From Carpediemonas membranifera BICM (taxonomy: Eukaryota; Protista; Fornicata), in assembly GCA_019828565.1 (NCBI GenBank), contig JAHDYR010000038.1:1252552-1316551 (forward strand): 64,000 nt of DNA. Reading direction: 5' to 3'. Made by a program: the position numbers and the translations under genes. Positions 1,867 through 27,226 of the stretch are shown piece by piece (the stretch's first letter is position 1; every line of letters starts with the position of its first letter). The notes beneath the pieces were generated by a model. It worked only from the letters and a program-made list of their open reading frames with translations, did not search any database and was not told where the DNA came from.

Positions 1867-1868
1867 GG

Positions 1869-2354
1869 CTAGGACCTCGAGCGGCGGCCGTTGTGGCCGC
1901 CCTCCGGTTGAAAATTACGCCTCTTGCGCTTACCTTTCATCTTGGCGCGGGCTATGATGGCGTCGATGTCTAGCTCTGACTCAATGACGGATGCCTTGAG
2001 GGCAGCAGCTGCATAGTCGGTTGCCGCGTCATCGTAATCGTCCTTGAGGAGCAGTAGCTTATAGCGGCCGAGGAGTCGGAGGCGAAGTGTGTTGGCATCG
2101 AGCATGTCGGTGGCGATGTCCCTTAGAAGCTCTTTGATGAATCTGGCTTCATCGCGGGGACCAAAGCGTTGCGGAAGTTCTAAATCGGCGAGCGTGTTGT
2201 GGAATGAGCGGTTTCTTGCATTGACTGGCTCGTCGTAATCGGGCCCCTGCGCGATGTTCGCTTCAACCGAAGCTAAACGGCCAGAAAGCTCGCCTAGAAC
2301 CCTTAGTATCTCCTCTTGTTGCGGATTGGGCGTGCCCGTGTCTTCTTCGGGCAT
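1869..2354 (-). CDS. Gag-like ORF1 of DIRS-like element copy 1
   Basis: ATG 2354 (MPEEDTG), N-terminal coiled coil and basic C-terminus; lies directly upstream of the RT and is homologous to the ORF at 1-478. Confidence 0.6.
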   Translation of the reverse strand: MPEEDTGTPNPQQEEILRVLGELSGRLASVEANIAQGPDYDEPVNARNRSFHNTLADLELPQRFGPRDEARFIKELLRDIATDMLDANTLRLRLLGRYKLLLLKDDYDDAATDYAAAALKASVIESELDIDAIIARAKMKGKRKRRNFQPEGGHNGRRSRS

Positions 2355-2725
2355 CTTTCGAATTCTGCCATATCCTGCACATCTGGTCGAATCAATCCAA
2401 CGATCAATAGTCTCCGGCCCGCGCTCCCCGCGGGACCCTCCGACCCTCAGCACCCCGGGTGCCCTGGTCGAGTGCTGCTCACTCCGACTCGGTCGTCGAT
2501 GGCGCTCTCGCGGCTTACTGCGTTAAACGGCGTAAAGGAACACGGTTTGCGTTCACTTTGAGCAGCAGCGCGCATCTGAGCACCAAGGCTCGATTTTGCG
2601 CAATTTCACGCATCCACTCGCACAAAACGTACCAAAACTCCTTGAAAGGAGCTACTTCTCCGCAAAAGACAACGAAAGTAACCAAGGTGAGATCAAAGCA
2701 GCGAAATGTTGTGGTATTCCCGTTC

Positions 2726-3085
2726 TTACTCACTCACAATGTCCTGCCCAGCAGCAGCCGCGCGTTCGCGAGCAGCTTGGGCTTGTGCCAGCCAATCCAC
2801 GATGGCTCTGCACTGCCACTTCCAATTGGCAACGAAAACCCGGTCCACGAGACGATCCTTGGCCGCGTTGTCCAGCAGCTTCATCTCGACCAGCCTCTCT
2901 GGCCAGGGCACACCGCCAGCCTTCCAGGGCGCGCAACGGCCGCTCGAACTGACAACAGCAGGCACCATATCAACGTTGAAGTGCTGATACTGCTTCACCT
3001 TATCAGCCCGCGCGTCGGAGACGTAGTCCGAGCAGACGATGTCAATGACGGGTTTCACACCGCCCTCGTCGGGCCTGACACATGA
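2726..3085 (-). pseudogene. C-terminal restriction-like endonuclease (RLE) domain of a CRE/R2-type non-LTR element
   Basis: VRPD...VIDIV...ADKVKQY...VPAVVSSSGR fits the RPD/D/KxxxY/PxxxxxxG RLE pattern. Same strand as the CRE-like RT at 28-29.4 kb. Confidence 0.6.
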
Positions 3086-3130
3086 GTATCTCCAGAGTAT
3101 CTCCCGGGAGACTCTAGCCATTCTTACAGT

Positions 3131-4795
3131 ATGATTCCAGCTATCTCCACCACCAACTGGTCAAGGTTTGTCGACTGGCTGGACGCCACCAAGCCTGATG
3201 CCCATCCCCAGCCCTCTCCTACCCCTCCCTCGTCATTTACCTCCCCCTGGTCCTGGGAGGCCGCCATCTCTCAAGCCGCGGGGCAGAGGCCCCCCATTGG
3301 TCCGAAGATAGCACTCAACGGCAGACCAGGGCCAATTTTTGCCATGTTTGGTCTTGACCTCACACCTCTGCTAGACCTATCGTCCTTCATATGCTCTATG
3401 GAGCTTCACCAAGCCTAGCATCATCCTCTCTGTCAAAACAGTACCTTGAATGGGGTGGTGGTTTAACCCCTCCTATCAGAAAACCTGCACCCTCTCCGAC
3501 TGCAGACGACAGCATTCTCCCTTGCCTCAAGACTCCTGGAAGGAAAAGAAAGGCCCCATCAACCCCTTTAGTGCCAGTATACAACATATCTGACCTCTCG
3601 CCAGAAGAGGAAGAGCCCCCTAGCCTCCATGTAGTGATTGAGGAGGCAATCAAGTTCCTACGATCTCCCAAAGCGCACTACTTCCCCCCTAACAAGCCCC
3701 AATCTTCTAACCCACTGACCGGGCCCGGCCCTTTCATGCATGTACCGGTACACATGGATAGAGATTGCGGTCTGCACTCCCTGGCAATATGCACAGGTCG
3801 CTCCGTCACCATCTCACGCTCTCAAGCCCTGCAGGATATTCTATCAGCACTCTCCTCCGGACTTCAGCCCTCTCCCAGGCTGAGAGCCACAATACACAAA
3901 CTGCGAATCTCACCAGTCGAAGGGGAAGCTGCCTATCTCTCATACGATAATCTGGCTATACTGGCGGCAGTATACGGCCTCAATTTAATCATCATATCAG
4001 ACGTCTCAGCCCATGAGAAATGCTTTCTTTTTGAGCGCCTCTTCGGTCAATGGGGTAAAAACTTCATTCGATGCCTTAAGGGCGTTCTTCGTCAGTGGTT
4101 ATGCCATCATCCACCACAAAAGAGTGCACTACGAGCCCCTTCTTGCCAACGATCTGGTTTCCGCAGCCACCAGTCTCAATGGCGCCACCTTCGGGCCAAC
4201 AGGCACCAACTATATCATCATTCTCGACTTCGAAGCGGCTGGATACGCGGTAGACCATCACCACCATGGTGCTGCCAGGTGTTTCCCAGTGGAGGCTGGA
4301 GCAACCCTTCTCCGCAAAGGTGTGGAGCCAGGCACAGACATCCCTATGTGGGACATCGAAGGCATTCATTGGGGACCCATAGACGTGGATTTCCCGGCAA
4401 ATCTCATGAGATCCGCCCTTGTACAGTCATGCACAATTCATGGATGCCCCCCCTTCTCGTTCAAGATACATCCGGAGGCCAATGGACACCCTTACCACTT
4501 CCCCTCACCTCGAGCCTGGCTTCAGCAGCTTGCTAACATTATGAGACAGCTGCCTACTTGTGTCCTTGTAGCTAAGGATCCGCGCATGGAGAATGCAGTC
4601 ATCCACTCCCATGCTGCGCCGGAGGACCTATCAACCCTGGGCAGGGTGCATGACCTGGCGGAGCTTGAGTCGATCGACCGCCGACTGTTCGCTGGCATGG
4701 CATCCTACATCGAGACATCCTCGTTCTCATCCAGAATGGACACTGCGCAGGCCCTTACCTGGATCAAAGCACCATGCCTTCCCAACGGGCAGTAA
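3131..4795 (+). pseudogene. Element A N-terminal region: OTU-like cysteine protease plus Maelstrom-like DEDD exonuclease (frameshifted)
   Basis: Protease motifs PVHMDRDCGLHSL...YLSYDNLAILAAVYGLNLIII...IIHHKRVHYEPL, then exonuclease motifs IILDFEAAG...FPVEAG...IHGCPP...VAKDPRME. Spread over ORFs 3131, 3391 and 4013. Confidence 0.6.
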
Positions 4796-7700
4796 GTCAT
4801 ACGAAGCGATGACAAGAAGCAACTTTGTGATCACCACTCGACATCAGGGAGACTGGGCATGGTTCAACCCTCTCGAGGCCCTTCGAGACATTGCAGCAGA
4901 AAGGCTAGCCTGTCACAGCCCTGCTACACTTGAGGAATCCTTTATCACCCCGGTCCAAGTCCAGGAGGGAGACATCTCCTTTGCAAACCTGCTCACCGCT
5001 CTAGAGGTCTTTTGGCAGGCCCCGCCTGCGTCCCAGCTCCCACAATCAGTGGCAGAGCTGATGACTATGAGAGCACCCCCGGCTTACAACACGGGCAATA
5101 ACATTGTCCGCTCGTACAGAGCCCCCCGCTTCTGGTTCTTAGTCCCCAGGGAGGGCAACCATCCACGACTCAGACGTGTCAGACCCTCGGTCTCTCGCTC
5201 GGCCAAGCCCGACTTCTTAGCCAATGTTGAGCGCGCGAGAGAGCAAAGAGTTGCTCTGTCCCATGACCTCACAAAAACGATGGACACGCTACATGCTTCA
5301 CGTGCCAATGACGTGCAGTGGCCATCAATTTCTGTCCGCGGAGCGGCCCCTGCGGGTCCTGCTCCCCCCAGGCGCATCACTCCCACTACTGTCCGACAAC
5401 GAGATGGACGCAGGCACAGGCCGGTAAATGGCCTTCTCTGTTCCTGGAATGTCACTTCACTCAACACGCGAAAGCTCGCCTTATGTCACTCCATTCAAGC
5501 GGACATCATAGTTATCCAGGAGCACTGGTGGCGCGCCATCACTCCAGAGAGTGCAACAGCTTCTGATTTCACCTTTGTTTTCCATAAAGTTCCAACTGGA
5601 GAAGTGAAACACCTAGGGGTAGGCTTCCTCTTGCACAACGACATAGCCAAGCACTGTGAGTATGTTCGAGGTCAGCCTCACTCGCCCCGCCTCCTGCAAA
5701 TTGATGTCGGATGTACACTCAACAGTCCCTCGCGCAAAGTCAAGCTGCGGCTCATGTCTATCTACACCCCGTGTGCAGGGAAAGAAGAAAGGGAGTCCTT
5801 CCATGAGCTTCTTCGCAATGCCATTAGCCTAGCACAACAGGCTGGCTTGCACACTGTTCTCATGGGAGACTTAAATACCAATGCAGATACCCCTCCACAA
5901 TCTGGACAGCTACTCTCAGCCTGGGCAACCTGATGCTACTCCATACGGACAATCCCAGCTTCAGTGACAGGTATCTAGACGCTTTCGCGGTGCCCTCATC
6001 CCTCATCGTCGGCTCCATGGATAGACCGTTTGCTACTGAGATAGAGCCATCAGGACACCGAACCATTACTCCTAAGCTCCCAATAGTCAACTTCTTCAAA
6101 CTTGCAGAGCCTCCACTATCTCTGCTCAGAGCCATTCCGAGCATTCAAGCGATGGCAAAACGCTGCGGGAGTCGCCTCGTAGACGACATCCGCTCCGCCA
6201 CTACGGTAGACGAGGCGGTCGGCCTGCTAGGAAAGACTCTCCGGCAGTGGAGCAAAAAGAAGGTCAGCACTCCCACTCAGGTCAATCAGAGCCAAAGCAT
6301 CACGCACCACTCAGTGACTACTGGCCTTGATGATGGTACCACCCCGGACGAGCTGTTCCGACTAATACGCATGGAACAGAACAGTGCAGAGTCCACCTGT
6401 TCTCATCCAAAGAAGATGGCAGGTCCCTTTGCCCCACAGTGTGCCATCTCCTCTGCAACTCTCTTGCAAGAGCTGTCACTATCGATTGCAAACGCCGAAT
6501 CCTCTCTCAAAGCGCACTCACTCAACTCAAGAGATTCCTCTGAACACATGAGGGTCTTCTCAGATGATTTCTTCAGGTATGTCAGGGGCAGGCTCAGGAA
6601 AGGAGCGGCTCGTCAGGGTAACTCCCAGGCAGACTTCATCTCACTGTTTAACAATGGAGTCCCAGCGGTCATCACAGTAGATGGACGCAATATCACTGAT
6701 CCTCAAGCAGTTGCTGCGGCCTTTGAACGCCAATACTCAAGCGTATCCTCATCACCAAATGCTCCTGACCCCAGGCACGCCGCCTCAGATCTACCACCTT
6801 TCGAGATCTCCCCCCCCCCGGCCCTACATGCAGCATTGCGAAGGTCAAAGAACTCTGCGGCGGCAGGAGCGGATGGCCTGTCCCCGGGCATTTTCAAAGC
6901 GCACCCATCACTCACTGAAGCGCTCCGCAACATCCTACAAAGATGTGTCGATGAGGTTGCCACCCCACACCAGTGGCACCAGGCAACAGTGGTCCCTATT
7001 AAGAAGCAAGGAACGGAGGACAAACCCCCAGCTTCGTATCGTCCGATATCACTTCTCTCGTCATGTCACAAGATCTTAGGGTCAATCATTGTCGCAGAAT
7101 TATCCCCAGTCAACCCACTTCCTCCAGAACAGTATGGGGCGCGCCCGGGCCGGTCAGCAGAGGATGCGCTGTGGGCAATTCATGGCGCCAGACTTGCCTT
7201 CTCAGCTACCTTTATAGCCACTCTGGAGATAGCGAAGGCTTTTGACAGAGTGCCCCGAAGGCGAGCACACGACAGGCTCAAGGGCCATCCTCGCCTCATT
7301 GAACTCCTCCGAGAGATGCACTCAAACACATCTCTTTCTCTCAAGGGCTCATCATCAGCAGCTACAACGAACTTAGGAGTCAGGCAAGGCTGCACCACCG
7401 CCCCTTTCCTCTTTGTTCAATACCTTTCAGATGTGCCACGACTGATCAGGCATCTCAGCACCCTCGACCGTGGCACACTTGACTCACTTGATCCGGACAT
7501 GGACAAGCTGGAACAACTGGCGTCGAGTCTACCAGCGGACCATGTGCCGGTGTCAGTCCTTTACATGGATGACCTCACGCTCGTAGCCCCCTCCCTGGAC
7601 CTTCTCATCCGAGCCCTCACAGCTGCATGGCTCATCATGGAAGCTCTTGAGCTCCAGCCCAACCACAAGACATGCTTTATTGCGGACTCCTCAGTCCAGT

Positions 7701-8056
7701 CAATCATAGTGAGAGGACACAGAGTCGAACAAAAGGACACTATCAAGCTCCTTGGCATCTGGTTTGACACATCCACATCATTCAACACGCACAACGATAG
7801 GACTTATGAGAAGATCCAAAAAGAAATTGCATGGCTCAAGTCCATCGGCATATGCCACTCCCGCTTTGTGCATCACATTGTGGAGGTTTATGTGGTGCCG
7901 AAACTGACATACGCCTGGTCAGTGTGGGCTGGCCGCAAAGCCAGACGTGCATGAGTCAGCTGGCTTCTCTTGCCCTGCGCGTCAACAACACGGCCTCGCA
8001 AGCCAAATACTTTGAGCTTGGATGGCTTCATCCCTCGGTCATGCTGCTGGCTGACA
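4796..8056 (+). pseudogene. Element A APE endonuclease and reverse transcriptase (degenerate)
   Basis: APE motifs SWNV, IQEHW, GVGFLL, MGDLN, SGH (normally SDH). RT motifs AAGADG, YRPISLLS, QYGARPG, LEIAKAFD (normally LDI), GVRQG, YMDD, KLLG. Frameshifts near 5930 and 7950. Confidence 0.85.
8042..8056 (+). repeat. 15-bp TSD of element C (TGCTGCTGGCTGACA), left copy; partner at 18435-18449
   Basis: Exact direct repeat flanking C. Confidence 0.9.
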
Positions 8057-10719
8057 GAAAGAAAGAAAGAAAATTTATGGTGCCTGGTATCGGGCCCCGG
8101 TTACTTAGGCTGATCTCCCTTATTACTGGAGCCGAGTTCCCCGGGGCGCTGCCTCCTCCCTGCGATTGAACTTGTCAGCTGCGTCCAACGAGCGATTCGG
8201 TGCTACTGCTTCCGCTCACTCCCGATTTCACTTCCCCCCATAGGCCTTCGCCATCTCCGTGCGCTGAGCGCTTTCCTGTCTCCCTGTAAACCCGGCAGCT
8301 TCCAGGGAGCCTGGGGTCTGTCCTCGGTGCTTCCACAGGCAGGTTTGTCCTGCAAGACCTTCTCTATAGCACTCCCTGATTCCCTGCAGTCCCTACGGGG
8401 TCGTTCAAGCATGGCACCCTCTCATCTTTCCAGATTCCCTGTTCAGTGCCCACACGACCCTGTTAAGTGGCCTACCCGTGGGCGGGGAAAGCAACTAAGT
8501 CCCTCTCATCTACCCCTGTTAGGCGGCGTGGGCTAGGGCTGACACAGACTCTAGATCTGCAAGGCCTAGTACCCCTTATGATAGTTCTCTTGTGCTACAC
8601 TTCCCAGCGTCCCTATATCGTTCACAAGGGCGGCGGGGACGTCATGTCCCCCCGTATCCCATGCTCAGTCCCTGCAGTTTCCTTAGGTTCACCGCGAGTG
8701 GTGCAACCATCCAATTGATGGATTTCCTCTGTCCCTGGCCCTGCCCTCTCCCTGGGAAACATGGGGGGTCTCCCCTTGATCCCAGAGTCTATGCTTCCCT
8801 GCCCCCTTTCTGGATGTGGTGTTCCTTATCTATCCATCTATTCTATAGCTATCATAGACCTTTGCCAGGCTCTGGGCCTTCTCCCCTTTCCGCTGATGAT
8901 GGAGACGGGCTGACATTCGCTGCCACCGACACTATCCTTTTCCACTCTGCCCTTGACTGCCACTTCCCTGTCTTCCTACTTATGGCCGGTTTCCCCGCCA
9001 TGCACTTTCCCATACGTTTGGGTCCTAGGACTTCCATGAGCCCCACCGCTGTCTTGCTCTTGCACCTCCTGGTCCAGTTCATTCTTACCATCTCCCTACC
9101 AAAGTCTATCTTCCCTGCATTCGTTGCTCCCTCTCTTGTTCCTCTGAGGAGTGCGTTCACTGAGTCCCTGGCTTTCCACATAATCGATCCCTCCTTCCAG
9201 ACCCTGTCTCTGATTGGTATATCCTGGCCCCTGCTTGTCACGATCCTCTTGACTGCTAGCATCTCCAGGTGGGCTTGCAGGTCCATCCATCCGTTCAAGA
9301 TGCGCATGACCGAGCCCCCACCTGGGCCTTTTCCGGCCATGATGCCCTGCCAATCCGTCCATATCTTGTTCCCCCCTGCTGCGTAGCCCCACACCTCCAC
9401 TCCAAACATTATCCTCGGCCATATGTAAACTTCGAGGAGGAGCCTGCTGGCTAGCGCCGGCATGTTGCCTCTGGTCCATCCCACTCTTCTCACTAGCTTC
9501 TTGTACCTTTCGCTCTGCTCCCGCTTCTTTCTGATACAGGCTGCCAGTGGGTCTTTTCCGCTGGCTATCCAGAGACCTAGGTACTTAGCTTCCTCTTTTG
9601 CCATTAGGGTAACTCCCCCCACTCTCGCCACTGCTGCCCTGTCTACACTGATCATCTCACTCTTTTGTGCATTTGCCCTCATGAGGTGCTCCTTGATAAC
9701 TTCTATGACTAGGTTCGCCACTATCTTGCTCTTTTCCGGTGTCTCCCCTGTGACCGCTGTATCGTCCACGAACATGGTTAGGGTGGCCGGCAGCGTGTCC
9801 CGGACTCTTGGTAACTCCGTTGGTGGTTCCCTGATATCGTACTCTTGTCCCTGATGCTTCTTCCTGACCAGGTGAGGCCAGTTTGCCATGAACAAAACGA
9901 ACAGGGTCGGCGCTAGGACAAATCCTTGCTTCACTCCCCTGTTTGTTCTCTCCCATGACCCTGCCCCCTTCCTGCAGCTTATCCATGAGGATGTCCCTCG
10001 GGACGGTGTCATAGGCTTTCTCTATGTCTAGGAAGATCGACGTGGTCTCCCCCCCTTCCTGGTGTCTCTGCACGATGTATTGTATCTGTTGTATTACGTC
10101 CTTATCCGATTGGAACCCTGCTTGCTCTCTTGGGATGAGGTGCCATGTGGCTGCTTCTAATCTTCTCTTCAGGAGCCTACCATACACCCTATACAGTAGT
10201 GGTGTTAGCGAGATGGGTCTGTACGACTCCGGCTTCACTCTGGGCTTCCCATTCTTGTGGATGGCCGAGACTGTAGCATACTTCCATGTTGTCGGGATCT
10301 TGCCCTCCCTGTATACCCTGTTCATGAGCCTAGTTATCTGAGCGATCCCCTGGTCATCTGTGTCCCTGAGCATGTCCCCTGTAGTGTGGTCCGGTCCCGG
10401 TGCAGTGTCCCTCTTTATCCTTCTGATCGCTTCTCGTATTTCTCTCTCCTTAAATTCGTCCTCCCTCTTTCCATTGCCTCTATCCTTCCACTCCGGTTTC
10501 CTGCCCCTGCTCACTCCTGCATACTGTTGTAGGAGGATCTTACCTATTTCTTCCTTGTTGGTGGTAATCTCCCCGTCCTTCAGTATGCTCTCTGGCATGC
10601 CCTTGAACTGGTTTTCACACCACCATCTTCTTACCGCTGCTTCCACCATGGACCTGGATGCTTTGTATCCTTCCTTCGCGCTCCGGCTGAGGTCCTGGAT
10701 CCACTCTTCCCTGCGTTTT

Positions 10720-10736
10720 CCCCAGAAGGCCTGTAG
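10720..10736 (+). repeat. 16-17-bp TSD of element D (CCCCAGAAGGCCTGTAG); partner at 17911-17927
   Basis: Exact direct repeat. Removing the insert restores the C frame ...KRELQAFWGKRREEW. Confidence 0.9.
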
Positions 10737-10812: not shown

Positions 10813-10825
10813 CCCGGGAACGCCT
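10813..10825 (+). repeat. 13-bp TSD of element B1 (CCCGGGAACGCCT); partner at 16550-16562
   Basis: Exact direct repeat. Confidence 0.85.
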
Positions 10826-11298
10826 CAGTTCACCAATGATTTCAGCAAAGTGGAAACACTTCGATCATGGATGGACAAGGACCAACAGGCCTGGCCTATA
10901 TGGATAGGGCAGTGCCCCATGGAGCTCAGAAGGAGCGGCCTTGGCCTCCTGTCTGAACATTCAAGGGTTGCTATCAGGGCATACCGCTGGGCGCGAGTGG
11001 GAGCTCCACGCCCATACCAAGGAATCAAAGTGTCTTCATGGAACGTATGTTTACAAGGAAAAGGAAAACAACCGTCGAGGGCCAGTGCTAGCACCGGCGG
11101 CTACATGGTTTTGTCAAGACCACAAGGAAGGAAGGGCAGCACAAAAGGGAAACAGGGGCCGTCGATAGAGGCTAAAAGGAGACTACGAACAAAGCAACAA
11201 CAACTACACAGAAAGGCCCCGCTACTCAGAAAAGGGCGACGCATTTTTAGGACCGCGCCTTTTTGAAAGAATGGCCTATATAGTACGGAGCATGGACA

Positions 11299-14200
11299 AT
11301 GGGAGAAACTGGAAGGCCTGGACGGAGACCTCACCCGGATATGTACATGTGGCCCGACTTTCGGACCCAAAAATTCCGACCCAGTTTATGGACTAGGAAA
11401 AGGGGAGAAATTTTGCACTCAACAATGCAGGTAGAAATACCGACAAGGATCAGGGATTCCACGCAGAAGCAGTGGGAGGACATCAGGGAACTACTGGACA
11501 GCTTCCTCGCTGAAAGGAACGATTCAAGGACTCTACTTCTTCGTAGAACAGGCAAGTTTACAGGAAAGTCGCTCAATGCGAACTCCAAAGGACGCAAGGA
11601 AGTAATCATGAACGCCAGACGCATCCTCTTCGCAACCGGCGTCACTGACAACAAGGACATCATCCTCAGGAACCCATGCGGCATCCACGGCCTCCGCGAC
11701 CTTTTCTACATGCTCACAGAGGCGCTCAACCCCAGAGACGAGGAAGCAAAGGACATGGCACAGGCACTGGAGCCCAAGACGCTGAAAGCGGGCTTCACTG
11801 GCATGGCAAGATGGCCATCTGAGAAGGACATCGAGACGGCGATCCTCAAGCCGAAGGAAGATGGGCCCATCGAATGGGATGTAGACAGGGACAGCGTCAA
11901 GAAGGCCGAAGGGTCGTTCATACTGGTATCAGGGGCTCATGGAGACGAGGCCGTAGAAGGCGTGCCTTACGACAAGGTATGGGATCCGGCAAACCAAGGC
12001 CCGGTCACCAGAGTGGCCTACGAGCAAGAGGACGGCAAGTACAGGGTCATCCTAGAGCTAAGCGACACGTCAGCATGGTCCATCAGCCGCTTCATGGAGG
12101 AGGCTAGGGACATCCTCAGGCTTCAGGCACCGGAGGCCCCGGCCATATGGCAGGCAGCATGGAACAAGTCAGGGATCTACCTGAAGGGCAGAACCAATAT
12201 CCTGGGCGAAGGGGAGGAGACCCCCCTTAGCAACGAGCCGCCGTTCCGGAAGGTGAGGCTGGAAGTGCTCAAGGCCACCTCGGTCCGCAGCAATAGGGAC
12301 GAACATGCCGATCTGGACAGGTCGTCCGCTAGCACGGTCATCGACGGAGACGAGGAGCAACATGTCAAGGACAAGGAGGAACGACGCCAGCAGGCCACCA
12401 TGCCCGGCAGAAGAAGCCTCGACGACAGCCTCCTGGAAGTGAACAAGGACATGGTCGGGGCCAACCAAGGCAAGATCGACCAGGACGAGGAGGTCGACTC
12501 AAACAAGGACAGCAGTCAGCCGCCGAGGATGCCTAGAAAGGACAAGGAGAAACGACTGGTGATCGGAGCCATCGACTTCGAGTGCGCAGACCCTGGCGTC
12601 AAGAAGGCAGGGATCCCTGCCATCCCGGTTGAGGGCGGGATCGTACTCTTTGACCTCAGCACTGGGGACATTCTTGGACACGGGCATGGCCTGTACTACC
12701 AGGACATACCGGCAGCAAGCATGGACCAAGCGAGGTACACGGCATGGGCAGTGACGGGGCTGCCGCCGGCCACCTTCGTGGAGGTCGGGACGGGGCGGCC
12801 GCCGATCGAGTATGAGAAGCACATACATACTTTCAGGGACTGGGCCAACCGCCTGGCGGCTCAGCTGGCAAGGATCGAAAGGTCGGAGGGTTGGAAGATA
12901 ATCATGTATGCAAAGGGGGTGGAGATGGAAAGCTTCCTCCTCACGAACCCCACAAATGGACTGGAGCAAGGAACCAGGGAATTCTTCCAAGCTAGGCTGG
13001 TGGACGAGAAGAAGCTACCAGAGATCCTGGAGAACAACGGCAAGGGAGGAGGCTGGCCAAAACCTCAGGGACAACCTCGACAAGGCCAACTACCTGGAAG
13101 CAGTAACAACATGGTCAAATGGATGGCAGAACAGGAGCGAGCCCAAGGGAGTCTGTCCGTACCACAGACACACCGCGGGTTGCTACCACTGTGGGTTGGC
13201 GGATACAGTAGTCTTCACAGCCAGGATCAGGGCCCTATGCAAGGAGAGGATGAGCACCCCAGACGTCTACCACTACATGGGTAAGGCACTCGACAAGACC
13301 ATGGAAGCAGTCGGGAAGGCGGAGCCGGGCATGGATATCATGGGAGGCCCGGAATTCGCGACAAGGAGGGACACCTTTGAGATCTTCGGCACGTACCCGA
13401 TCGGGGACGCAAGGGACGTCAGCAGGGAAGTCGGCGACAGGATCCTCGTAGTCCCGGACAACGGACACCGCTTCGGCATCGGCTTCGGGTTCGGGGAGGT
13501 TCTGTTGGGCATGAAGGGCATCTTACTGGCCCCCCTCACAATCATGGACAACGAAGGTGTACTGGAGAGAAGCCCGCTATGGACCATCATGGAAGAGCCA
13601 CGGCTAACCAGCTCCGCATGGTACGCGTCAGGAAGGGCCTAGGGGCAGCAAGGGAGGAGGACATCATAACCATGGCCATGCTATACGAGTGGTGGCCCTC
13701 GAAGGAGGCTACGGCTCATCAAGGAGTCTGGGGCTGCGACGACCTAGCAGAGAGCCTCAGGGACTATGAGAAGGTCATAGTCAACGTCAAGGCCCCCAGG
13801 AACAGGGGTAGGATCACCCTAGGGGCGAGCTTCATCCCGAGAGACTGGGGCATGGTCAGGGTCAGCGAGGCTGGGACCATCCTAAGCCGCATGCGCAAGG
13901 AAGGGGCCAGACTAGTCTCGGCAGCTATCCCGGACGAGCCCAGAGCCAACACAGTCAATGTCCCAGGCATCACGTATGTCCCCACCATCGACGGAAAGTC
14001 CGAACAGCCATACCAAAGTAGGTTCTTCGACAACGGCCTGGAGGAAAAGGCGAGGCGGATTAGCACCAGGATGGTGGGCAGGCACTTCGGCCAGGACGCG
14101 GATCAAGGACATCACGACCAGCATGGAGACAGGGAAGAGGACAGAAGGGTAGGACACGGAGCCGGCGGTAGAGCTGGTGTCAGAGCTGACGACAGAACCG

Positions 14201-14802
14201 GCGACAGAGCTGGTAACATGAACAGGACCTCGGATCGTAACCACGGAGGAGACGACAGGGAGAGACAGGACAACACGGGAACACAGATGAGAGGCTCGTT
14301 CAGCGGGAACACCTGGGCCGGTAGAGGCTCAGAGGGAGGCATGGACAACAGCAAGGATCACTCTTCCTCCACGACGCTCAAGCGCAAGGAGGGCAGCACG
14401 AGTAGGATCATGGACTCGGACAGCGGAAAGAGAAGCAGGCACGAAGAGGACATGGACTGGGAGTCTGGAAGCAGACAGGCAACCGGCATGGACTCGGAGA
14501 AGCTGCGGCTCCGAAAGCAGTTGGCAGAGGCGCAACAAGAGATCTCAGCGCTCAAGGCTGCCCGACTCATGCAAGAGCAAGGCCACGGAAGGTTGGTGCT
14601 CTCCGGCGTCGCGACTAAGCCCAGCAAGGAGAAGCCCACGATCCCCCGGCACAAGCACAAGAAGGCTAAGAAGGCCAAGCAGATCTCACCCATGGACCTG
14701 ATGACCCAGTTCATCACGGTAATGCAGAGTCTACAAGGACAGCAAGTGAGTCAGGCCGAGGACAGCTGCAGCGGCAGTGGGGAGTCCACGGAGGAGGAGT
14801 AA
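11299..14802 (+). CDS. Family B ORF1 (~1167 aa) with a Maelstrom-like DEDDh exonuclease domain and C-terminal coiled coil
   Basis: Three overlapping ORFs are joined by compensating +1/-1 homopolymer slips (~13045, ~13593) that are absent from copy B2. Motifs IDFEC, IPVEGG, TGLPP, AKGVEME, CPYH-x6-HCGLAD. Confidence 0.8.
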
Positions 14803-15134
14803 GGACATGGTAAAGCAGTATTCTTTCAAGGAACAAGCAACATTTTCTTTATAATTCACAAGCCCTGGCTCCCACCCAGGGCCCGGCATTAGCTGAAATG
14901 CACTGCCGGTAGGCTGTAGCGGCAGCCAAAGGGGGGGTCACGTCATATCGTCCCCCTCCTAAGTACCCTGCCCGAAGAATGGAAGGTCACCAGGTGGTAA
15001 CAAGGTTGGCCTGACAAGGGTCACCGAGACCGGCATCTAGGCCCCTTGTTAGGACAAGGATAGCAGGAGAGGAGCGGGAAGCTGGGGCTCCCAAATTCTG
15101 GGAATTCGCAGGATAAGGAAACAGGACAAAGGCA

Positions 15135-15634
15135 ATGGTAACCTACAAGATACTTAGTCTGAACACAGAGGGACACATAGGAAGAGGAAAGGACTTCACG
15201 GCGTCTATGGCAACGGCGAGCTGGCCCAAGGCGCTGACCTGAAGAGAGAAATTAGCAGACTATGCCCCCTATGCTCGGATGAGTCGGAGGTGAGCCTGTT
15301 CTACAGGATCATTAGGGAAAAGCCAGGACCAGCAAGGAAGCAGGAAATGATCAGGGAGTGGGCAGAGGGCCAGAGGCTAGGATCGGCAGCGCACATAATC
15401 TGTGAATGCCCGGCAGTAGACAGGGGAGAAGCTTGGACAAAGCTGTGGACAGCAGCGAAGCACAAAACTAAGGACTTGGAAGTAAGGCAGGGCCCCCAGG
15501 GCGAATGGTACCAGGAAAGACCCATCCTAGAATTACAGCAACTAATAATATGGGGCTCGGAGGACATTTGGGAAGGCCTCACGGCAGGACTACGGGAACT
15601 GGCAAAGGTTTACAACAGCTTCAAGGTGGAATAG
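15135..15634 (+). pseudogene. B1 ORF2 remnant (first 28 codons fused out of frame to the Zn-finger tail)
   Basis: MVTYKILSLNTEG...MATA followed by a stop at ~15240. The downstream CPLC...HIICEC matches the end of B2 ORF2. Confidence 0.85.
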
Positions 15635-18538
15635 AAGCATGTCATGAACCCCTGACTCCAGGACCGGGAAGGGATGGACAAGGAATCAGCCATGGACCAC
15701 CCTCGCTGGTGCTAAGCTCCTGGGATCAGTGAGGAAAGGCCCCACGTATCCCGGTAGCCAGGAACCAAAGCAAGGGAAGGAACGACTGCAAGGAAAGAAC
15801 AGGAAGGACAGACCAGAAATAAGAAAGAAAGGACATGCGACAAGGACAGAGCAAGGATAAGGTCAAGGAAATCCATATCCATATGGTTGCACCACTCGTT
15901 GGGACCCCAAGGAAACTGCAGGGACTGGCCACGGGGGTCGGAGGGGCACAGGTGCCCCTGCCGCCCTTGTTAACGACATGGGAAACCAAGGACATGTAGT
16001 GCAAGCGAAATGTTGTAAGGGGTAACAGGACAACCAGGCCTAGTGCCTGGGGGTACACCACCATGCCGCTGACCCACGCCACCTAACCGGGGTAGACAGC
16101 ATGGACTTAGTCACTTTCCCCGCCTTCGGGTAGGCTTCTTAACAGAGTCGAGGGGGCATGGAATTGGGGAACCGGACAGACGAGAGGGTGCCGTGGCTGA
16201 ACGGCTCTACAAGGACTGCAGGGAAGCAAGGAGTGTCATAGTCAAGGTTCTGCAGGACGATCCTGCCTGTCAATGCCCCGAGGACAGACCCCCAGGCTCC
16301 CCGGATAGTTGCCGGACTTTCAGGGAGACAGGAAAGCATATTTGCACGGAGATGGCCGCAGGGCCTCTGGGGCGATTGGAATCGGCTTTCCGCGGAGACA
16401 GTAGCACCGAAAGCCCAAGGCAAACGCTGCTGACCAGTTTGCCACGGGAAATAGGCAGTACCCCGGGGCACTCAGCTCCAAGACAACGGGAAACAAGCTC
16501 AGTCCGGGGTCAGAATCCAAGCACCATAAATTTCTTTCTTTCTTTCTTTCCCGGGAACGCCTTAGCGTGTTGACTTCCCTTCGTGAGCGAGCCTGATACT
16601 ACGTTGGGGGCGTTAGCACCATCACCGTCAGGGTCCAGCTGGTAAGGCTGGGTAGTCCCTTGCATGTTGACCTATCAACTGGCTGGCCCGATACCCCCAA
16701 AGTCGGGATAACCCAGGTCTTACTCTTGGGGGTCCTTCGGGCCCCCGTTCTGCCTGGCACCCGCAAGGCCTTGCCCTGCACACCCGCCACCGGGGCCTTC
16801 TGCTCGGTTTCCCCCTACAGGGCTCCTCTCAGGGATATTTTCTCCATACCATTCGACCCAGTTTGCAATTTTTCAGGCACCCGCCGAAGCGGTTTCGGGC
16901 TTGGCGTTTGCCGTACCACGCAATTGGGCCAGTTATGAAACCCACCGATCATCGCTGGGTAGCTATATGATTCACGGCTGCGTTCGGGCTCTTCCACACT
17001 TTCCGTTCCGGCATGGATCCCCTCCTCAAGGATTTGTTCCCTATAGGGCTTCTTCCTAGCTTCCGGCTGGTTCCAAGTTTTGGGTGCCGGGCCGTTCGGC
17101 GCAGCTCTGATTTGGTCCAGGTGCCGCCCAGGTGGTATTGTTGCCTTATGGTTACCCTCCTGTTTGGCTGCTGCGCCCCGATACCTCGCACGTACGTGTA
17201 TACATGTGCATACGTGCCCCGCCCTATGGCTCTGGGTTATTTCTTATACGTGTGAAGAGTGTGCCGGTTCTGCCGGCTGAATGTTGTCTACGTTCCCAGT
17301 ATGGGTGAGCGTTTGTGTGTTAGCGAGATTAGTGTTCGGGGTTGAGTCCCCCTTCCGCGGCTGGGTGCTACCGGGATACGTGGGGCTTGCGTCCCCCGCT
17401 GATCCCAGGAGCGCTCCGCTTCGGTTGAGGCGGGGGTTGGGTCCCAGTTTGACCCTGGTCCCAGAGGTCATAGGATTCTGGGATGGTGTACTTACCCGTC
17501 TTTCCGGAGGTTCAGAAGGGCACGTCTGCCGTTCTGCAGTCCCTCTCTGACGGTATGGTCCTCGCTGCGGAGGAGCCAGAGCATTTCCAGGATTGCCCTT
17601 GAGTTGTACCACTCCGCCTCCTGCCCTTGCCTTAGGGCGTGGTACTGTGTGCGTAGATGCGCCTCCGCCAGGATGTCATTCCATCCTTCTGGGCGTTCTA
17701 CCGCCTTGCATTGGCAGATGATGTGGCTTTGTGTTCCCAGGGGCTGGTTGTATGCCCATTCTGAGAGGATTTTGGTGGTTTCCGCCGCGGTTCTGGTGAC
17801 AGTGTACAGGCGAGTAATGGTGTCACCTTCTGAGTCCAGGGTACATAGGGGGCAACACCGCTTGATCCTGCTCAGGAGGGCCTGGGGCTGGCCGATCGCG
17901 CTCCCAAGTACCCCAGAAGGCCTGTAGCTCACGCTTCATGATCTCACTTCTGGTCTTGTTTCCCTCTTCTGTCCATGGTGTGTGCCGGAGCTCCGACCAC
18001 ACCTTTTCTTTGATGACCTCTTCCCTGTATCCACTGCCTGGGTGACCTGACGGCTCGCCCATATCCTTCCTGATATCCTCCTCCCACTCATCCAGGCTCT
18101 TAAAACGGTGCAGTCTTCTGACTGATGTGCGTTCAGCCTTCTTCCTCATGTTCCACACTCTGACGCCCGGTATGTCTAGGACTTCCTCTCTCTTTGTCCG
18201 TTGGATCCGTTGTTCCCTCCATTCCAGTCTTATCATGTTGTGGGCTGACCCCCAGACTCCGAGTCGACTAGCATCCAGTACTTCTATCCTTGCTCCTCTG
18301 ATCCCTGATGATACCAGCGCGAAGTCCGGAGTGGTAGTTCCCTTGGTGAGGGTACCTTCCATGGGGATCACTGCTCCCAGCTTATAGTCCCTGATCAGGT
18401 CCTTCCATCTTGCCATTGTGGCTATCCTTTTGGGTGCTGCTGGCTGACAAGGCCAGACAGCGCCTCCGTTGGTTGCGTCTCCACCCAGAGGTCCCAATGC
18501 TCCAACCACTCGCCGACGCGGCAGATCTGCTCGGCCCC

Positions 18539-18553
18539 TATGCCAGCACCCAT
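18539..18553 (+). repeat. 15-bp TSD of element B2 (TATGCCAGCACCCAT); partner at 27212-27226
   Basis: Exact direct repeat. Confidence 0.92.
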
Positions 18554-19459
18554 GAAGAAGAAATTTATGGTGCTTGGATTCTGACCCCGGACTGAGCTTG
18601 TTTCCCGTTGTCTTGGAACTGAGTGCCCCGGGGTACTGCCTATTTCCCGTGGCAAACTGGTCAGCAGCGTTTGCCTTGGGCTTTCGGTGCTACTGTCTCC
18701 GCGGAAAGCCGATTCCAATCGCCCCAGAGGCCCTGCGGCCATCTCCGTGCAAATATGCTTTCCTGTCTCCCTGAAAGTCCGGCAACTATCCGGGGAGCCT
18801 GGGGGTCTGTCCTCGGGGCATTGACAGGCAGGATCGTCCTGCAGAACCTTGACTATGACACTCCTTGCTTCCCTGCAGTCCTTGTAGAGCCGTTCAGCCA
18901 CGGCACCCTCTCGTCTGTCCGGTTCCCCAATTCCATGCCCCCTCGACTCTGTTAAGAAGCCTACCCGAAGGCGGGGAAAGTGACTAAGTCCATGCTGTCT
19001 ACCCCGGTTAGGTGGCGTGGGTCAGGGCATGGGTGGTGTACCCCCAGGCACTAGGCCTGGTTGTCCTGTTACCCCTTACAACATTTCGCTTGCACTACAT
19101 GTCCTTGGTTTCCCATGTCGTTAACAAGGGCGGCAGGGGCACCTGTGCCCCTCCGACCCCCGTGGCCAGTCCCTGCAGTTTCCTTGGGGTCCCAACGAGT
19201 GGTGCAACCATATGGATATGGATTTCCTTGACCTTATCCTTGCTCTGTCCTTGTCGCATGTCCTTTCTTTCTTATTTCTGGTCTGTCCTTCCTGTTCTTT
19301 CCTTGCAGTCGTTCCTTCCCTTGCTTTGGTTCCTGGCTACCGGGATACGTGGGGCCTTTCCTCACTGATCCCAGGAGCTTAGCACCAGCGAGGGTGGTCC
19401 ATGGCTGATTCCTTGTCCATCCCTTCCCGGTCCTGGAGTCAGGGGTTCATGACATGCTT

Positions 19460-22400
19460 CTATTCCACCTTGAAGCTGTTGTAAACCTTTGCCAGTTCCC
19501 GTAGTCCTGCCGTGAGGCCTTCCCAAATGTCCTCCGAGCCCCATATTATTAGTTGCTGTAATTCTAGGATGGGTCTTTCCTGGTACCATTCGCCCTGGGG
19601 GCCCTGCCTTACTTCCAAGTCCTTAGTTTTGTGCTTCGCTGCTGTCCACAGCTTTGTCCAAGCTTCTCCCCTGTCTACTGCCGGGCATTCACAGATTATG
19701 TGCGCTGCCGATCCTAGCCTCTGGCCCTCTGCCCACTCCCCTGATCATTTCCTGCTTCCTTGCTGGTCCTGGCTTTTCCCTAATGATCCTGTAGAACAGG
19801 CTCACCTCCGACTCCTCCGAGCATAGGGGGCATAGTCTGCTAATTTCTCTCTTCAGGTCAGCGCCTTGGGCCAGCTCTGTGATGGCTCTCATAGGGCCCT
19901 CCCCTCTCTCTGCCGACGATGGGGATGGGCTGACATTGGCTGCAATGGATACAATTCTCTTCCATTCCGCCCTGCTTTGCCCCTTCCCAGCCTTTCGGTC
20001 TACCGTAGGCTTACCTTGCAGACACTTGCTTAATTTCCTTGTCCCCATGATTTCCATTAGTCCTAGTGCCGTACGGCTTTTGCACCGCTTCATCCACCCC
20101 TCCTGATCGTTTCCATGCCATAATCCAGTAGCGCTGGTTTAGGGGCTCCTTCTCTGGTGCCCTCCAGTAGATGCTGCACTCTCTCCCTAGCTTCCCACAT
20201 AACCGTGCCCCGCCCCCATTCTCTGTTTCTGACTGGTATATCCTGGTCCCTGTAGTTGACTATCCTTTTGACTGCCAGCCATTCCATGTGTGCCTGGAGG
20301 TCCACCCATCCATTCATCAGCCTCATGGCTGCGCCCCCTCCCGGTCCTGTTCCTGCCATGATTCCCTGCCAGTCATTCCAGATCCTTCTACCTCCCGGTG
20401 CGTTCCCCCACACCTCGACTCCGAAGAGGATCCTGGGCCATATATATATTTCCAGTAGTAGCCTGCTCGCTAGTGCTGGCATGTTTGCCCTGGTCCACCC
20501 TGCCCATCTCACCAGTCTCTTGTACCTTTCGCTCTGCTCCTGTTTCCGCCTTATGCAGGCCGACATAGGGTCCTTCCCACTTGCGATCCATAATCCCAGG
20601 TATCTCGCCTCCTTCTCTGGCAGTAGTGTTACCCCCTCGATCCTGACTAGGGCTGTTCTGTCCACGCTAATCATTACATTCTTCTGGGCGTTCACCCTCA
20701 TTTCATGCTCTCTGATTATGTCCACCATTATGTTGGCGACCATCTGGCTATGCTCCGGTTTGCTCCCTGTGACCGCAGTGTCATCCACAAACATGGTAAG
20801 TGCTGCCGGTAGTCGGTCGCTGAGGTGGCTCGTGGTCCTTGGCGGTTCTCTGATGTCGTACCGTTCTCCCTTGATTTTTCTTTCTGGCCAGGTGGGGCCA
20901 GTTAGCCATGAACAGCACAAACAGTGTCGGTGCCAGGACGCACCCTTGCTTAACTCCCCTGTTGGTTCTTTCCCATGCCTTTGCCCCCTTGACTGATATC
21001 CAGGTTTCCTTTATTGTGCCTTGAATTGCCCTGATCAAGTGCTCCTCCACCCCCATACCCTGTAGCTTATCCATGAGAATGTCCCTTGGTACCGTGTCAT
21101 ATGCCTTCTCGATGTCCAGAAAGATTGACGTGGTCTCACCCCCTCCTGGTGCCGCTGCACAATGTACTGTATCTGCTGGATGACGTCCCTGTCTGACTGG
21201 AAACCAGCCTGTTCTCTTGGTATGAACCTTTTCGTTGCTGCTTCCAGACGTATCTTGAGCAATCTACCATAGACCCTGTACAGCAGTGGTGTCAAGGATA
21301 TTGGTCTATATGATTCCGGCTTGACCCTTGGCTTCCCTGTCTTGTGTATGGCCGACACTGTGGCATACTTCCATGCTTTGGGTACGTCGCCCTCCCTGTA
21401 GACCCTGTTGATGAGCCTCGTCACTTCCCTAAGGCCTTTCTCATCCAGCTCTCTCAGCATGTCTCCAGATGTGAGGTCAGGCCCTGGTGCGGTGTCCCTC
21501 CTGATCCTTTTGATTGCGGCTTTGACCTCGCTTTCCTTGAACTCATTTCCGTCCCTGCCCCTCCATGTCTTCCAGGTGGGTTCCCTGCCTCTGCTGACTC
21601 TAGCATACTGTTGCAAGAGGATCTCGCTGATGGCCGCCTTGTCCGTGGTTACCACTCCGTCCTTGAGGAGGCTCTCCGGCATTCCCTTGTATTGGTTGTC
21701 ACACCACCACCTTCTGATGGCAGCTTCCACTGAGGCCCTTGAGGCCCTATACCCCCTTTTTGCACTTCTGCTGATGTCGGCCACCCATTTGGCCCTGCGC
21801 TCTCCCCAGTATTTCTCCAGCTCCTCTTTCATCCTTTCCTTCCTGGTCCTGTTGCCTATTTCTGTCCATGAGGTTCGCTGGAGTTCGCTCCACACTCCGT
21901 TCCCGAACACTTTGTCCCTTGCCTTTGCTCCCCTGTTGTTCACTGGGTCGCCCATGCATGCTCTTATAGTCTCTTCCCATTGGTCCGAGCTCTTGATCCT
22001 GTTCAGCTTTGAGACTGTGACTGGCCCCTCCTTCTTTTCATGGGCCAGGTGTGCACCTCGGGTATGGCCAGAGCCACGTCTCGCTCACTTCTGCCATAGT
22101 ACCGTTGTTCCTTCCATGCTAGTGTGATTCCATTGTGTGCTGAGCCCCATACCCCGACCTTCTGAGACTCTACCACCTCAATCTCCGCCCCCTGGATTCC
22201 TGGTGTTGTCACTGCAAAGTCCGGGGTTGATGTTCCTGATGTGAGCGTCCCAGACTTGGGTATGATGGCTTTGAGCCTGTGCTTCTCCATCATATCCTTC
22301 CACCGGGTGGATCTTTCCATCTGGCCTGGGTCGATGTTCCAGTCTCCCATAATTATGGCCTCCATGCTCCCTTTCATGTCCATGATCTTCTGTATAGTGT

Positions 22401-22902
22401 CCCTGAATCCATCCTTCTCCTGCTTGCTGTGGCCGGATGGGGGGCCATACACGTTGATGACTAGTATGTCCCTGCCGGTTCTCATTATGCTGGCTTGCAC
22501 TCTTCCCGATAGGCTGTCCGATATGCCGATGTCCCACTTTGCAGTTGCGTGTGGGCTCACTATCGTGCCGATGCCTTCCCTTGTTCCCTTCCATCTTGGC
22601 GCAGGTTCGTCATTGCCTGCTATGCCTAGTTGTCGGTTGATGCGGTGCTGACTTTTGACATCCGCCTTTCGTTTTTCGTTGGCTAAGACCAGGTCCTCTT
22701 CCGTCTCCCTCCCTGCTAGTGCGTAGTCAAGGTCCATGAAGCAATGAACCCTCGTATTCGCCGTTCTCCATGTCTCTTGTATGAGTACTGCCTCTATGTC
22801 CTTCAACCTTAGCTGAATCGCCGTTGCCATAGACGCCGTGAAGTCCTTTCCTCTTCCTATGTGTCCCTCTGTGTTCAGACTAAGTATCTTGTAGGTTACC
22901 AT
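19460..22902 (-). CDS. B2 ORF2: APE endonuclease - reverse transcriptase - CCHC Zn finger
   Basis: SLNTEG, IQETW, GIG, NVYGP, MGDWN, PDF, SAH; APGPD, YRPISL, QAGF, GVKQG, FVDD, RYLG; CPLC...HIICEC. Broken by frameshifts, several of which appear to sit in homopolymer runs. Confidence 0.9.
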
Positions 22903-23232
22903 TGCCTTTGTCCTGTTTCCTTATCCTGCGAATTCCCAGAATTTGGGAGCCCCAGCTTCCCGCTCCTCTCCTGCTATCCTTGTCCTGACAAGGGGCCTAG
23001 ATGCCGGTCTCGGTGACCCTTGTCAGGCCAACCTTGTTACCACCTGGTGACCTTCCATTCTTCGGGCAGGGTACTTAGGAGGGGACGATATGACGTGACC
23101 CCCCTTTGGCTGCCGCTACAGCCTACCGGCAGTGCATTTCAGCTAATGCCGGGCCCTGGGTGGGAGCCAGGGCTTGTGAATTATAAAGAAAATGTTGCTT
23201 GTTCCTTGAAAGAATACTGCTTTACCATGTCC

Positions 23233-26200: not shown

Positions 26201-26739
26201 GTCTCGATGTCCTTCTCAGATGGCCATCTTGCCATGCCAGTGAAGCCCGCTTTCAGCGTCTTGGGCTCCAGTGCCTGTGCCATGTCCTTTGCTTCCTCGT
26301 CTCTGGGGTTGAGCGCCTCTGTGAGCATGTAGAAAAGGTCGCGGAGGCCGTGGATGCCGCATGGGTTCCTGAGGATGATGTCCTTGTTGTCAGTGACGCC
26401 GGTTGCGAAGAGGATGCGTCTGGCGTTCATGATTACTTCCTTGCGTCCTTTGGAGTTCGCATTGAGCGACTTTCCTGTAAACTTGCCTGTTCTACGAAGA
26501 AGTAGGGTCCTTGAATCGTTCCTTTCAGCGAGGAAGCTGTCCAGTAGTTCCCTGATGTCCTCCCACTGCTTCTGCGTGGAATCCCTGATCCTTGTCGGTA
26601 TTTCTACCTGCATTGTTGAGTGCAAAATTTCTCCCCTTTTCCTAGTCCATAAACTGGGTCGGAATTTTTGGGTCCGAAAGTCGGGCCACATGTACATATC
26701 CGGGTGAGGTCTCCGTCCAGGCCTTCCAGTTTCTCCCAT
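23233..26739 (-). CDS. B2 ORF1 with a Maelstrom-like DEDDh exonuclease
   Basis: Near-identical to B1 ORF1. Three +1 homopolymer slips (~25580, ~24505, ~23990) are not shared with B1. Confidence 0.8.
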
Positions 26740-27226
26740 TGTCCATGCTCCGTACTATATAGGCCATTCTTTCAAAAAGGCGCGGTCCTAAAAATGCGTC
26801 GCCCTTTTCTGAGTAGCGGGGCCTTTCTGTGTAGTTGTTGTTGCTTTGTTCGTAGTCTCCTTTTAGCCTCTATCGACGGCCCCTGTTTCCCTTTTGTGCT
26901 GCCCTTCCTTCCTTGTGGTCTTGACAAAACCATGTAGCCGCCGGTGCTAGCACTGGCCCTCGACGGTTGTTTTCCTTTTCCTTGTAAACATACGTTCCAT
27001 GAAGACACTTTGATTCCTTGGTATGGGCGTGGAGCTCCCACTCGCGCCCAGCGGTATGCCCTGATAGCAACCCTTGAATGTTCAGACAGGAGGCCAAGGC
27101 CGCTCCTTCTGAGCTCCATGGGGCACTGCCCTATCCATATAGGCCAGGCCTGTTGGTCCTTGTCCATCCATGATCGAAGTGTTTCCACTTTGCTGAAATC
27201 ATTGGTGGACTTATGCCAGCACCCAT

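Follow-up and report, generated by a model that had tools for sequence, protein, structure and literature searches.

A Maelstrom-type DEDDh nuclease domain encoded by LINE retrotransposons of Carpediemonas membranifera

Known Maelstrom-type nucleases and enzyme cargo of retroelements

Proteins of the Maelstrom type serve hosts as weapons against transposons, both in the Piwi-interacting RNA pathway of animals and, as RIF4, in trypanosomes, and they are also known as an immune-evasion nuclease in arenaviruses. The subject of this work is a nuclease domain of this type carried by long interspersed nuclear elements (LINEs) of the free-living fornicate protist Carpediemonas membranifera BICM, found in a window of 64,000 nucleotides (the whole stretch of DNA analysed; assembly GCA_019828565.1, contig JAHDYR010000038.1, positions 1,252,552 to 1,316,551 of the forward strand). 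Judged by its residues, this version, conserved inside LINEs, appears catalytically intact, and adds a third setting for these proteins and a new LINE architecture.

The known members differ in activity. Entamoeba MAEL (EHI_192630) is an exoribonuclease that degrades single-stranded RNA (ssRNA); Bombyx MAEL binds ssRNA without cutting it, and animal Maelstrom has lost the catalytic residues (PMC4408791). TbRIF4 from Trypanosoma is a 3'-5' exonuclease that prefers duplex RNA, is needed for RNA interference (RNAi), and is present only in RNAi-proficient trypanosomatids; Barnes et al. (PMC3359990) tied it to the Maelstrom screen of Zhang et al. (PMC2628886). The nucleoprotein (NP) of Lassa virus degrades double-stranded RNA (dsRNA) as well as the RNA half of RNA:DNA hybrids (PMC3429428). 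The arenavirus exonuclease domain (ExoN) has been placed beside Maelstrom by PMC7968707, which names no mobile-element form in the part of its text consulted.

Enzyme cargo is also known in retroelements, as the original prediction had stated for DEDDy nucleases. The nearest prior cases are the DEDDy open reading frames (ORFs) in rotifer long terminal repeat (LTR) and Penelope-like elements (PMC5408684, PMC5718144) and the helicase cargo of insect LINEs (PMC5563155). Those of bdelloid LTR retrotransposons and Terminons are likewise 3'-5' exonucleases with intact DEED residues, and a Cys-His-Cys motif is described in Vesta2 and Vesta5; however, they are RNase D/mut-7-like, occupy a separate ORF3 of LTR or Penelope-like elements rather than LINEs, and are not assigned to Maelstrom in the text available (PMC5408684). 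The insect TRAS and Jockey LINEs carry a captured superfamily 1 (SF1) helicase in ORF1 or ORF2, for which silencing suppression has been proposed, although weakly shown (PMC5563155). This cargo is a viral helicase, whereas the one described here is a nuclease of the host silencing-pathway type. The literature searched, which did not extend to Repbase Reports and most subscription journals, where a prior note is possible, contained no account of a LINE with a Maelstrom-type domain. The parts consulted of the genome paper of this species (PMC8516963) and of its supplementary files gave no match for transposon terms.

Two copies of LINE family B carry the domain

The window opens with 27 kb of nested retroelements, and the remainder holds ordinary eukaryotic genes. 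Two of these elements, B1 and B2, are copies of the same LINE family, with 99.6% identity over 10827-15219 and 15218-16536 and, over the first 4.4 kb, only five indels, all of a single base. B2 (18554..27211, reverse strand) is a full-length element of 8.66 kb with a (TTC)n tail, flanked by a 15 bp target-site duplication (18539-18553 and 27212-27226). B1 (10826..16549, forward strand), flanked by a duplication of 13 bp (10813..10825, with its second copy at 16550-16562), has a full 5' end and an intact ORF1, but has lost about 2.94 kb of ORF2 through a deletion whose junction joins B2 positions 22818 and 19877. The remnant ORF2 (15135..15634, forward) consists of codons 1-28 of the APE endonuclease joined to the C-terminal CCHC region, and the element ends in a (TTTC)n tail with no poly(A) (16531..16549, forward). 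The complete ORF2 of B2 (19460..22902, reverse) encodes an APE endonuclease, a reverse transcriptase (RT) and a C-terminal CxxC...HxxxC motif. Pfam matches include Exo_endo_phos_2 (E 2e-7) and two RVT_1 pieces (E 9e-6 and 1e-4), while no RNase H match was obtained in these domain searches. The succession of APE and RT in B2 and in a second element of the window, A, together with the target-site duplications and simple-repeat tails of B1 and B2, identifies APE-type non-LTR retrotransposons.

ORF1 of B1 (11425..14802, forward), delimited by tblastn with P0005 and P0006, encodes some 1125 residues arranged as a conserved N-terminal domain, a linker, the Maelstrom-type (MAEL) domain, a conserved post-domain, and a low-complexity, coiled-coil-like tail. 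A Pfam search of ORF1 gave no match to an RRM, a zinc knuckle or the arenavirus nucleocapsid. The regions on both sides of the nuclease (11425-12250 and 13270-14050, forward) are conserved across B-type families and have no Pfam match. The B1 frame has single-base breaks at approximately 13044 (one additional G, inside the MAEL domain) and 13592, neither of which is present in B2; ORF1 of B2 (23233..26613, reverse) has breaks of its own near 25580, 24505 and 23990, none of them common with B1. Both B1 breaks are missing from short-read contigs of run X1 (at 13044, from one contig of depth 2.6), and the ORF2 breaks of B2 at 21138 and 20875 are missing from one contig of the same run. Assembly errors are therefore likely in both copies, from contigs numbering one for each break and with depths of 2.6-4, and the additional G at 13044 is probably such an error.

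The domain itself spans 240 residues. In B1 it lies at 12547..13264 (forward), split by the G at 13044, and in B2 at 24774..25490 (reverse), where it forms the uninterrupted core of P0001. It combines a catalytic D-x-E...E...H-x4-D set with zinc ligands of the form E...C-x2-H-x8-C. The corresponding B1 codons are those of D at 12574, E at 12580, the zinc E at 12631, the ExoII E at 12928, C at 13154, H at 13163, H at 13187, C at 13190, and D at 13202; in B2, the same nine residues follow one another in a single frame between 25463 and 24834. The positions originally predicted for these motifs, in both B copies and in element A, proved accurate, and shuffle controls, given below for element A and P0012, place the match beyond chance. 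The exception is the spacer between CPYH and HCGLAD, given then as six residues, which measures seven in all 17 proteins in which the motif was found, including the amoebozoan protein P0030 described below.

Identity of the nuclease domain

The fold was predicted with AlphaFold (AF2) from 15 rows of the retroelement family, leaving out P0030 and the known Maelstroms, and the resulting model had a predicted local distance difference test (pLDDT) of 84.8 and a predicted TM-score (pTM) of 0.85; a single-sequence prediction with a pLDDT of 32 was not used. The predicted fold is of the DnaQ/RNase H-like type that had been anticipated, closest to Maelstrom, with a putative two-metal D-E-E-D/H site and a presumably structural ECHC zinc site. 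Among 48,161 chains compared with VIA-align, Maelstrom structures took ranks 1 to 3 (Z 12.7, root-mean-square deviation (rmsd) 3.5, 187 residues aligned; Z 12.2, 3.7, 196; Z 12.2, 4.0, 204), and the next DEDDh enzyme reached Z 11.7; the nucleoproteins of Lassa virus (3r3l, Z 10.3) and lymphocytic choriomeningitis virus (LCMV; 4o6h, Z 10.2) scored lower. In a second comparison Maelstrom held ranks 1 to 5 (Z 13.1-12.2), with DinG next at 12.0. Over all Maelstrom superpositions, rmsd was 3.5-4.1 for 187-204 aligned residues.

The link at the level of sequence comes from a three-sequence profile run against 1.84 billion proteins. Of its 25 matches, nine covered only a low-complexity repeat and were dropped, one covered only the tail of B, and 15 covered the domain, among them eight from C. 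membranifera and one from the amoebozoan Rhizamoeba saxonica (P0030, E 3.4e-4). P0030 is the sole domain match outside the retroelement family, and is a member of the Pfam Maelstrom family (E 5.7e-19). HHalign of the eight-sequence family profile against it gave 98.5% and E 1.6e-15 with every motif in register, and P0030 scored 39.9 bits against a maximum of 2.3 for shuffled sequences. Both share AKG-x-x-ME and C-x-Y-H-x7-HCALAD, at an overall identity of 15-26%. Between the strand-2 Glu of P0030 and its equivalents in Bombyx and Drosophila Maelstrom the alignment is weak (E 0.02-0.14); via P0030, E33 of the LINE domain maps onto this Glu of the two insect proteins. The spacing C207-x2-H210-x8-C219, in turn, equals that of C290, H293 and C302 in Bombyx Maelstrom (PMC4408791), and RIF4 has the same H-x4-D spacing (H472/D477; PMC3359990).

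Several results weigh against this assignment. The lead of Maelstrom over other DEDDh enzymes is only about one Z unit, a near tie by the standard of the tool, and by E-value Foldseek lists DnaQ, ERI-1 and Orn first, with Maelstrom at rank 6. None of the eight domains passes the gathering threshold of the Pfam Maelstrom model (PF13017), and profile searches of PDB sequences found no Maelstrom, their best match being a designed helical protein. Given the narrow margin and the different Foldseek order, the decision falls to the zinc motif and to the relationship in sequence with P0030. With these, the identification of the domain as a Maelstrom-type DEDDh nuclease with an ECHC zinc site, taken as a statement of family identity alone, is held with very high confidence; because of the Pfam result, it is filed as a divergent Maelstrom-type subfamily rather than as a Pfam member.

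Single domain sequences had no match in Pfam or PDB, and when the domain profile was used in a word-based search of proteins, P0003 was the only match. The best query TM-score among the Foldseek matches listed was 0.52, for 4ybg, and a structure search of BFVD gave generic phage and giant-virus DEDDh matches. In the ESM Atlas, B and A fall near exonuclease clusters with scores of 0.92-0.95, some of them Rv2179c-like or RNase_T, which serves as a lead only. Pattern scans of viral contigs and prokaryotic genomes, which detect close relatives only, found no relatives.

The comparison with known systems can be drawn on three sides. The protist MAEL nucleases (EHI_192630, RIF4 and P0030) have, like the LINE domain, a DnaQ-H fold with DEDDh and ECHC sets, but are stand-alone host genes acting for silencing, while here the domain sits inside LINE proteins and scores below the Pfam model. 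Animal Maelstrom is the best structural match (Z 12.2-13.1) and has the same C-x2-H-x8-C spacing; it has, however, lost the DEDD residues and carries an HMG box, whereas in the LINE domain these residues are retained and no HMG box was matched. The arenavirus ExoN of Lassa virus and LCMV is likewise an ECHC-type DEDDh domain, placed on the parasite's RNA-coating protein. Its identity to the LINE domain (17-20%) is the highest among the matches listed, but its Z of 10.2-10.9 is lower than that of Maelstrom, with fewer residues aligned, 157-162 (for 3r3l, rmsd 3.2 over 157). The original likening to arenavirus NP is less well supported than that to Maelstrom: the fold agrees (Lassa NP, Z 10.3-10.9), but Maelstrom ranks above it, the zinc spacing is that of Maelstrom, and the dsRNA-specific Gly and basic arm are mostly absent.

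Conservation of the active site

All nine catalytic and zinc residues are kept in nine of the ten full-span sequences, the exception being P0009, with Tyr in place of D14. The catalytic set (D14, E16, E132, H218 and D223) is accordingly complete in nine, with Glu in ExoII as in P0030, and the zinc ligands (E33, C207, H210 and C219), as read from sequence, in all ten; the partial sequence P0017 has Leu in place of H218. At the first His position of the EHHCHC signature (Zhang et al. 2008), P0002, P0012, P0013, P0014, P0022 and P0030 have His, and the others Thr or Ser. This census counts against the case to the extent that eight of its ten sequences were also used to build the profile and that a single family supplies three of them. 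The eight distinct domain sequences are 22-66% identical in pairwise comparison.

Four further loci extend the family beyond the window. ORF1 is open in L001 (1129 residues) and L002 (1233 residues) and broken once in L003, while the L004 sequence stops within the domain. The ratio of nonsynonymous to synonymous substitutions (dN/dS, Nei-Gojobori) of L001 against L003 and L004 is 0.25-0.30 for the domain, 0.31-0.42 for the N-terminal part, and 0.39-0.61 for the linker; the comparison with L002, which is close to saturation, gives 0.39. The domain is under purifying selection. As originally proposed, the nuclease has been kept through deep divergence, with the nine residues found at identities down to 22% and a dN/dS of about 0.3, and the expectation of intact catalytic residues in family B holds in most other copies as well; the domain is probably active. 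In all three loci with downstream DNA (L001 to L003), the next ORF matches the APE of B2 (E 1e-8, 4e-19 and 9e-8), and the contigs end before the RT; the linkage to APE and RT is therefore observed in full in B2 and A, and as far as APE in these loci. Upstream of the element in L002, at 3-383 (forward), lies a DDE_3 transposase fragment (E 1e-9).

The annotation of these proteins is uneven. Proteins recorded under C. membranifera are 98-99% identical to the ORF that bears the domain. P0010 (KAG9395705.1) carries the erroneous name 'Splicing factor U2AF', although it represents part of a B-type LINE ORF1 and includes the C-terminal MAEL motifs; the other members are called hypothetical or named for APE. 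P0014 (KAG9396506.1) joins the N-terminal half of the MAEL domain and part of the post-domain to unrelated sequence, and could be a chimeric gene model.

A second architecture in element A

The nuclease domain is present in at least two LINE architectures, the B-type ORF1 and an A-type fusion ahead of APE. The latter is represented in the window by element A (3084..8043, forward; the 5' limit is approximate, from one loose contig end), a broken copy of a divergent single-ORF LINE with a MAEL domain, an APE endonuclease (5439..5888, forward; PF03372, E 3.7e-8) and an RT (7001..7762, forward; RVT_1, E 1.5e-21), the last with 24-41% identity to the RT of B2 depending on the segment. The short-read contigs cover this element at its 5' edge only. 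Its MAEL domain (4208..4777, forward) comprises only the N-terminal two thirds. The intact A-type sibling P0012 has a complete MAEL domain and APE in one reading frame, with no separate ORF1. Its residues 171-365 align to 4193-4777 and residues 462-810 to 4773-5894, so that the deletion in element A amounts to 96 codons (P0012 residues 366-461), and with them the zinc and catalytic His residues as well as the final Cys and Asp are gone. The prediction that element A has the same colinear motifs as B is thus borne out up to 4777, beyond which the C-terminal third is deleted; likewise, the placement of the domain in ORF1 applies to B-type elements, whereas in the A-type it shares the frame of APE. 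A LEALRD motif near 4890, once considered as the ExoIII motif of element A, was dropped when P0012 revealed the deletion.

The relationship between both architectures is supported by a profile built without A-type sequences, which scored element A at 44.8 bits (maximum 5.8 among 300 shuffles, 177 of them reported) and P0012 at 88.5 bits (shuffle maximum 2.3), and by pairwise BLASTP of the A and B domains (E 7e-5). Profiles of the B-type N-terminal and post-domain regions fail to detect P0012, P0015 and P0018, and the latter two have only the nuclease domain in common with B-type ORF1. Ahead of the MAEL domain, element A has a segment (3720-4140, forward) with DxDCxxHSL and HYEPL motifs, which may be OTU cysteine protease-like, judging by these motifs, and which has no match in Pfam or PDB; its middle part is also found in P0012.

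Proposed role and alternatives

In LINEs generally, the ORF1 protein is abundant and coats the RNA of the element. By analogy with its relatives, the LINE domain would act as a metal-dependent 3'-5' exoribonuclease, using two metal ions and a general-base His to hydrolyse RNA with a free 3' end, and the three assayed active relatives (Entamoeba MAEL, TbRIF4 and Lassa NP) point to RNA as the substrate. The mechanism proposed here is counter-silencing, that is, degradation by the LINE-encoded nuclease of the RNAs that silence the element. The domain would likely have been captured from the small-RNA machinery of the host; as an excess product that binds element RNA, the ORF1 protein would carry it to sense/antisense duplexes of the element and to small interfering RNA (siRNA) duplexes, where it would shorten element-derived duplexes before their loading into Argonaute. 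This would be a reverse use of the activity of RIF4, with a parallel in the nucleoprotein of arenaviruses. The mechanism as a whole is given close to, although short of, an even chance, since siRNA duplexes are what RIF4, its relative in trypanosomes, processes in the silencing of retroposons. The insect SF1 helicase provides a precedent for silencing suppressors in LINEs (PMC5563155). Somewhat more tentative is the broader proposal of a single ancient hijack of a host anti-transposon nuclease of Maelstrom/RIF4 type, kept active in two architectures and turned on the siRNA pathway, which would converge on the design of the arenavirus nucleoprotein and might represent a mobile route by which ExoN reached arenaviruses.

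Several observations count against counter-silencing. No host donor was found, with a ten-row tree that leaves the relationships unresolved and P0030 on a long branch. Of the dsRNA determinants of Lassa NP, a Gly equivalent to G392 (after the ExoI Glu) is present in two of ten sequences, and the seven-residue loop of the LINE domain has no counterpart of the K516-R519 arm. Some related diplomonads are described as having neither Argonaute nor Dicer. The A-type fusion of the domain and APE in one polypeptide, finally, better fits a role in cis, in which the nuclease would serve retrotransposition itself, either by trimming the transcript to its (UUUC)n end or by following the RT 3' to 5' and removing RNA from the RNA:cDNA hybrid. 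Such clearing of the template behind the RT is conceivable because ORF2 has no RNase H match. Most LINEs, however, do without such an enzyme, the B-type domain lies in ORF1, apart from the RT, and the 151 nt at the 3' end of B1 show no stronger folding than shuffled sequences (z 0.08), so that there is no clear stop structure; two prokaryote-type RNase H1 genes have also been reported in this species (PMC8516963). The cis role is regarded as unlikely, although not strongly so. The same two roles were proposed for the bdelloid DEDDy ORFs (PMC5408684).

A host-side or self-limiting role, in which the nuclease matures element siRNAs as RIF4 does, or degrades the RNA of competing elements and keeps copy number low, would agree with RIF4 and animal Maelstrom, whose action has this direction, with the nested cluster, and with the retention of ORF1 in B1 after the loss of ORF2. 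It is nonetheless improbable: the copies with known context (P0009, P0010, P0014, P0015, P0017, P0018, P0019 and P0022 not being among them) are all inside mobile elements with fresh target-site duplications, and the persistence of self-limiting elements would be unexpected, an argument made in PMC5408684. Since Pfam shows neither an RRM nor a zinc knuckle in ORF1, the binding of RNA requires some other part, and the domain could chiefly serve the ORF1 particle in this way, as an RNA-binding module with little catalytic role, in the manner of Bombyx MAEL, which binds ssRNA without cutting (PMC4408791). The five catalytic residues kept in nine of ten complete sequences, which animal Maelstrom lost, make this very improbable. 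The lowest probability is assigned to a generic DEDDh DNA exonuclease, acting in cDNA proofreading or in trimming 3' flaps at the insertion site. DnaQ, TREX1 and ExoX lie within one to two Z units of Maelstrom, DnaQ comes first in Foldseek, and the Atlas neighbours are prokaryotic and viral exonuclease clusters, but the ECHC motif with Maelstrom spacing and the link to the Pfam Maelstrom protein P0030 speak for the Maelstrom type, and the three assayed active relatives cut RNA.

If counter-silencing is the role and silencing RNAs are destroyed, the domain would be a direct counter-defence that transposons took from the very system directed against them; if, instead, the RNA of the element is cleared or trimmed, it would add a new step to LINE retrotransposition. 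In either case, a domain of 240 residues with nine mutable positions makes the ancestral Maelstrom activity and the link to arenavirus ExoN testable.

Other features of the window

Five or more retroelement insertions make up the nested cluster at 1-27300, which is possibly an insertion hot spot; they include A, a B-related RT element, B1, an APE fragment with B2 inserted in it, and a further tail at 10736. The B-related LINE (8053..10736, reverse), inserted at the end of element A, is represented by its 3' part from RT to tail, with an RT 73% identical to that of B2 and a (TTTC)n tail at 8057; its ORF1 falls outside the window. The APE fragment at 17910-18434 is the site into which B2 inserted. 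Another retroelement, at 861-2522 (reverse), has an RT (RVT_1, E 5e-17) and an upstream ORF, and resembles DIRS/LTR elements more than LINEs. Just before element A, an ORF at 2411-3085 (forward) has a weak match to 2OG-Fe(II) oxygenases (E 0.005), below the cut-off. In the remainder of the window, two head-to-head helicase ORFs at 46615-52116 are presumably of the MCM family, judging by their motifs, and a pair of inverted repeats of 431 bp, 99.8% identical, is located at 39269-39699 and 58819-59249.

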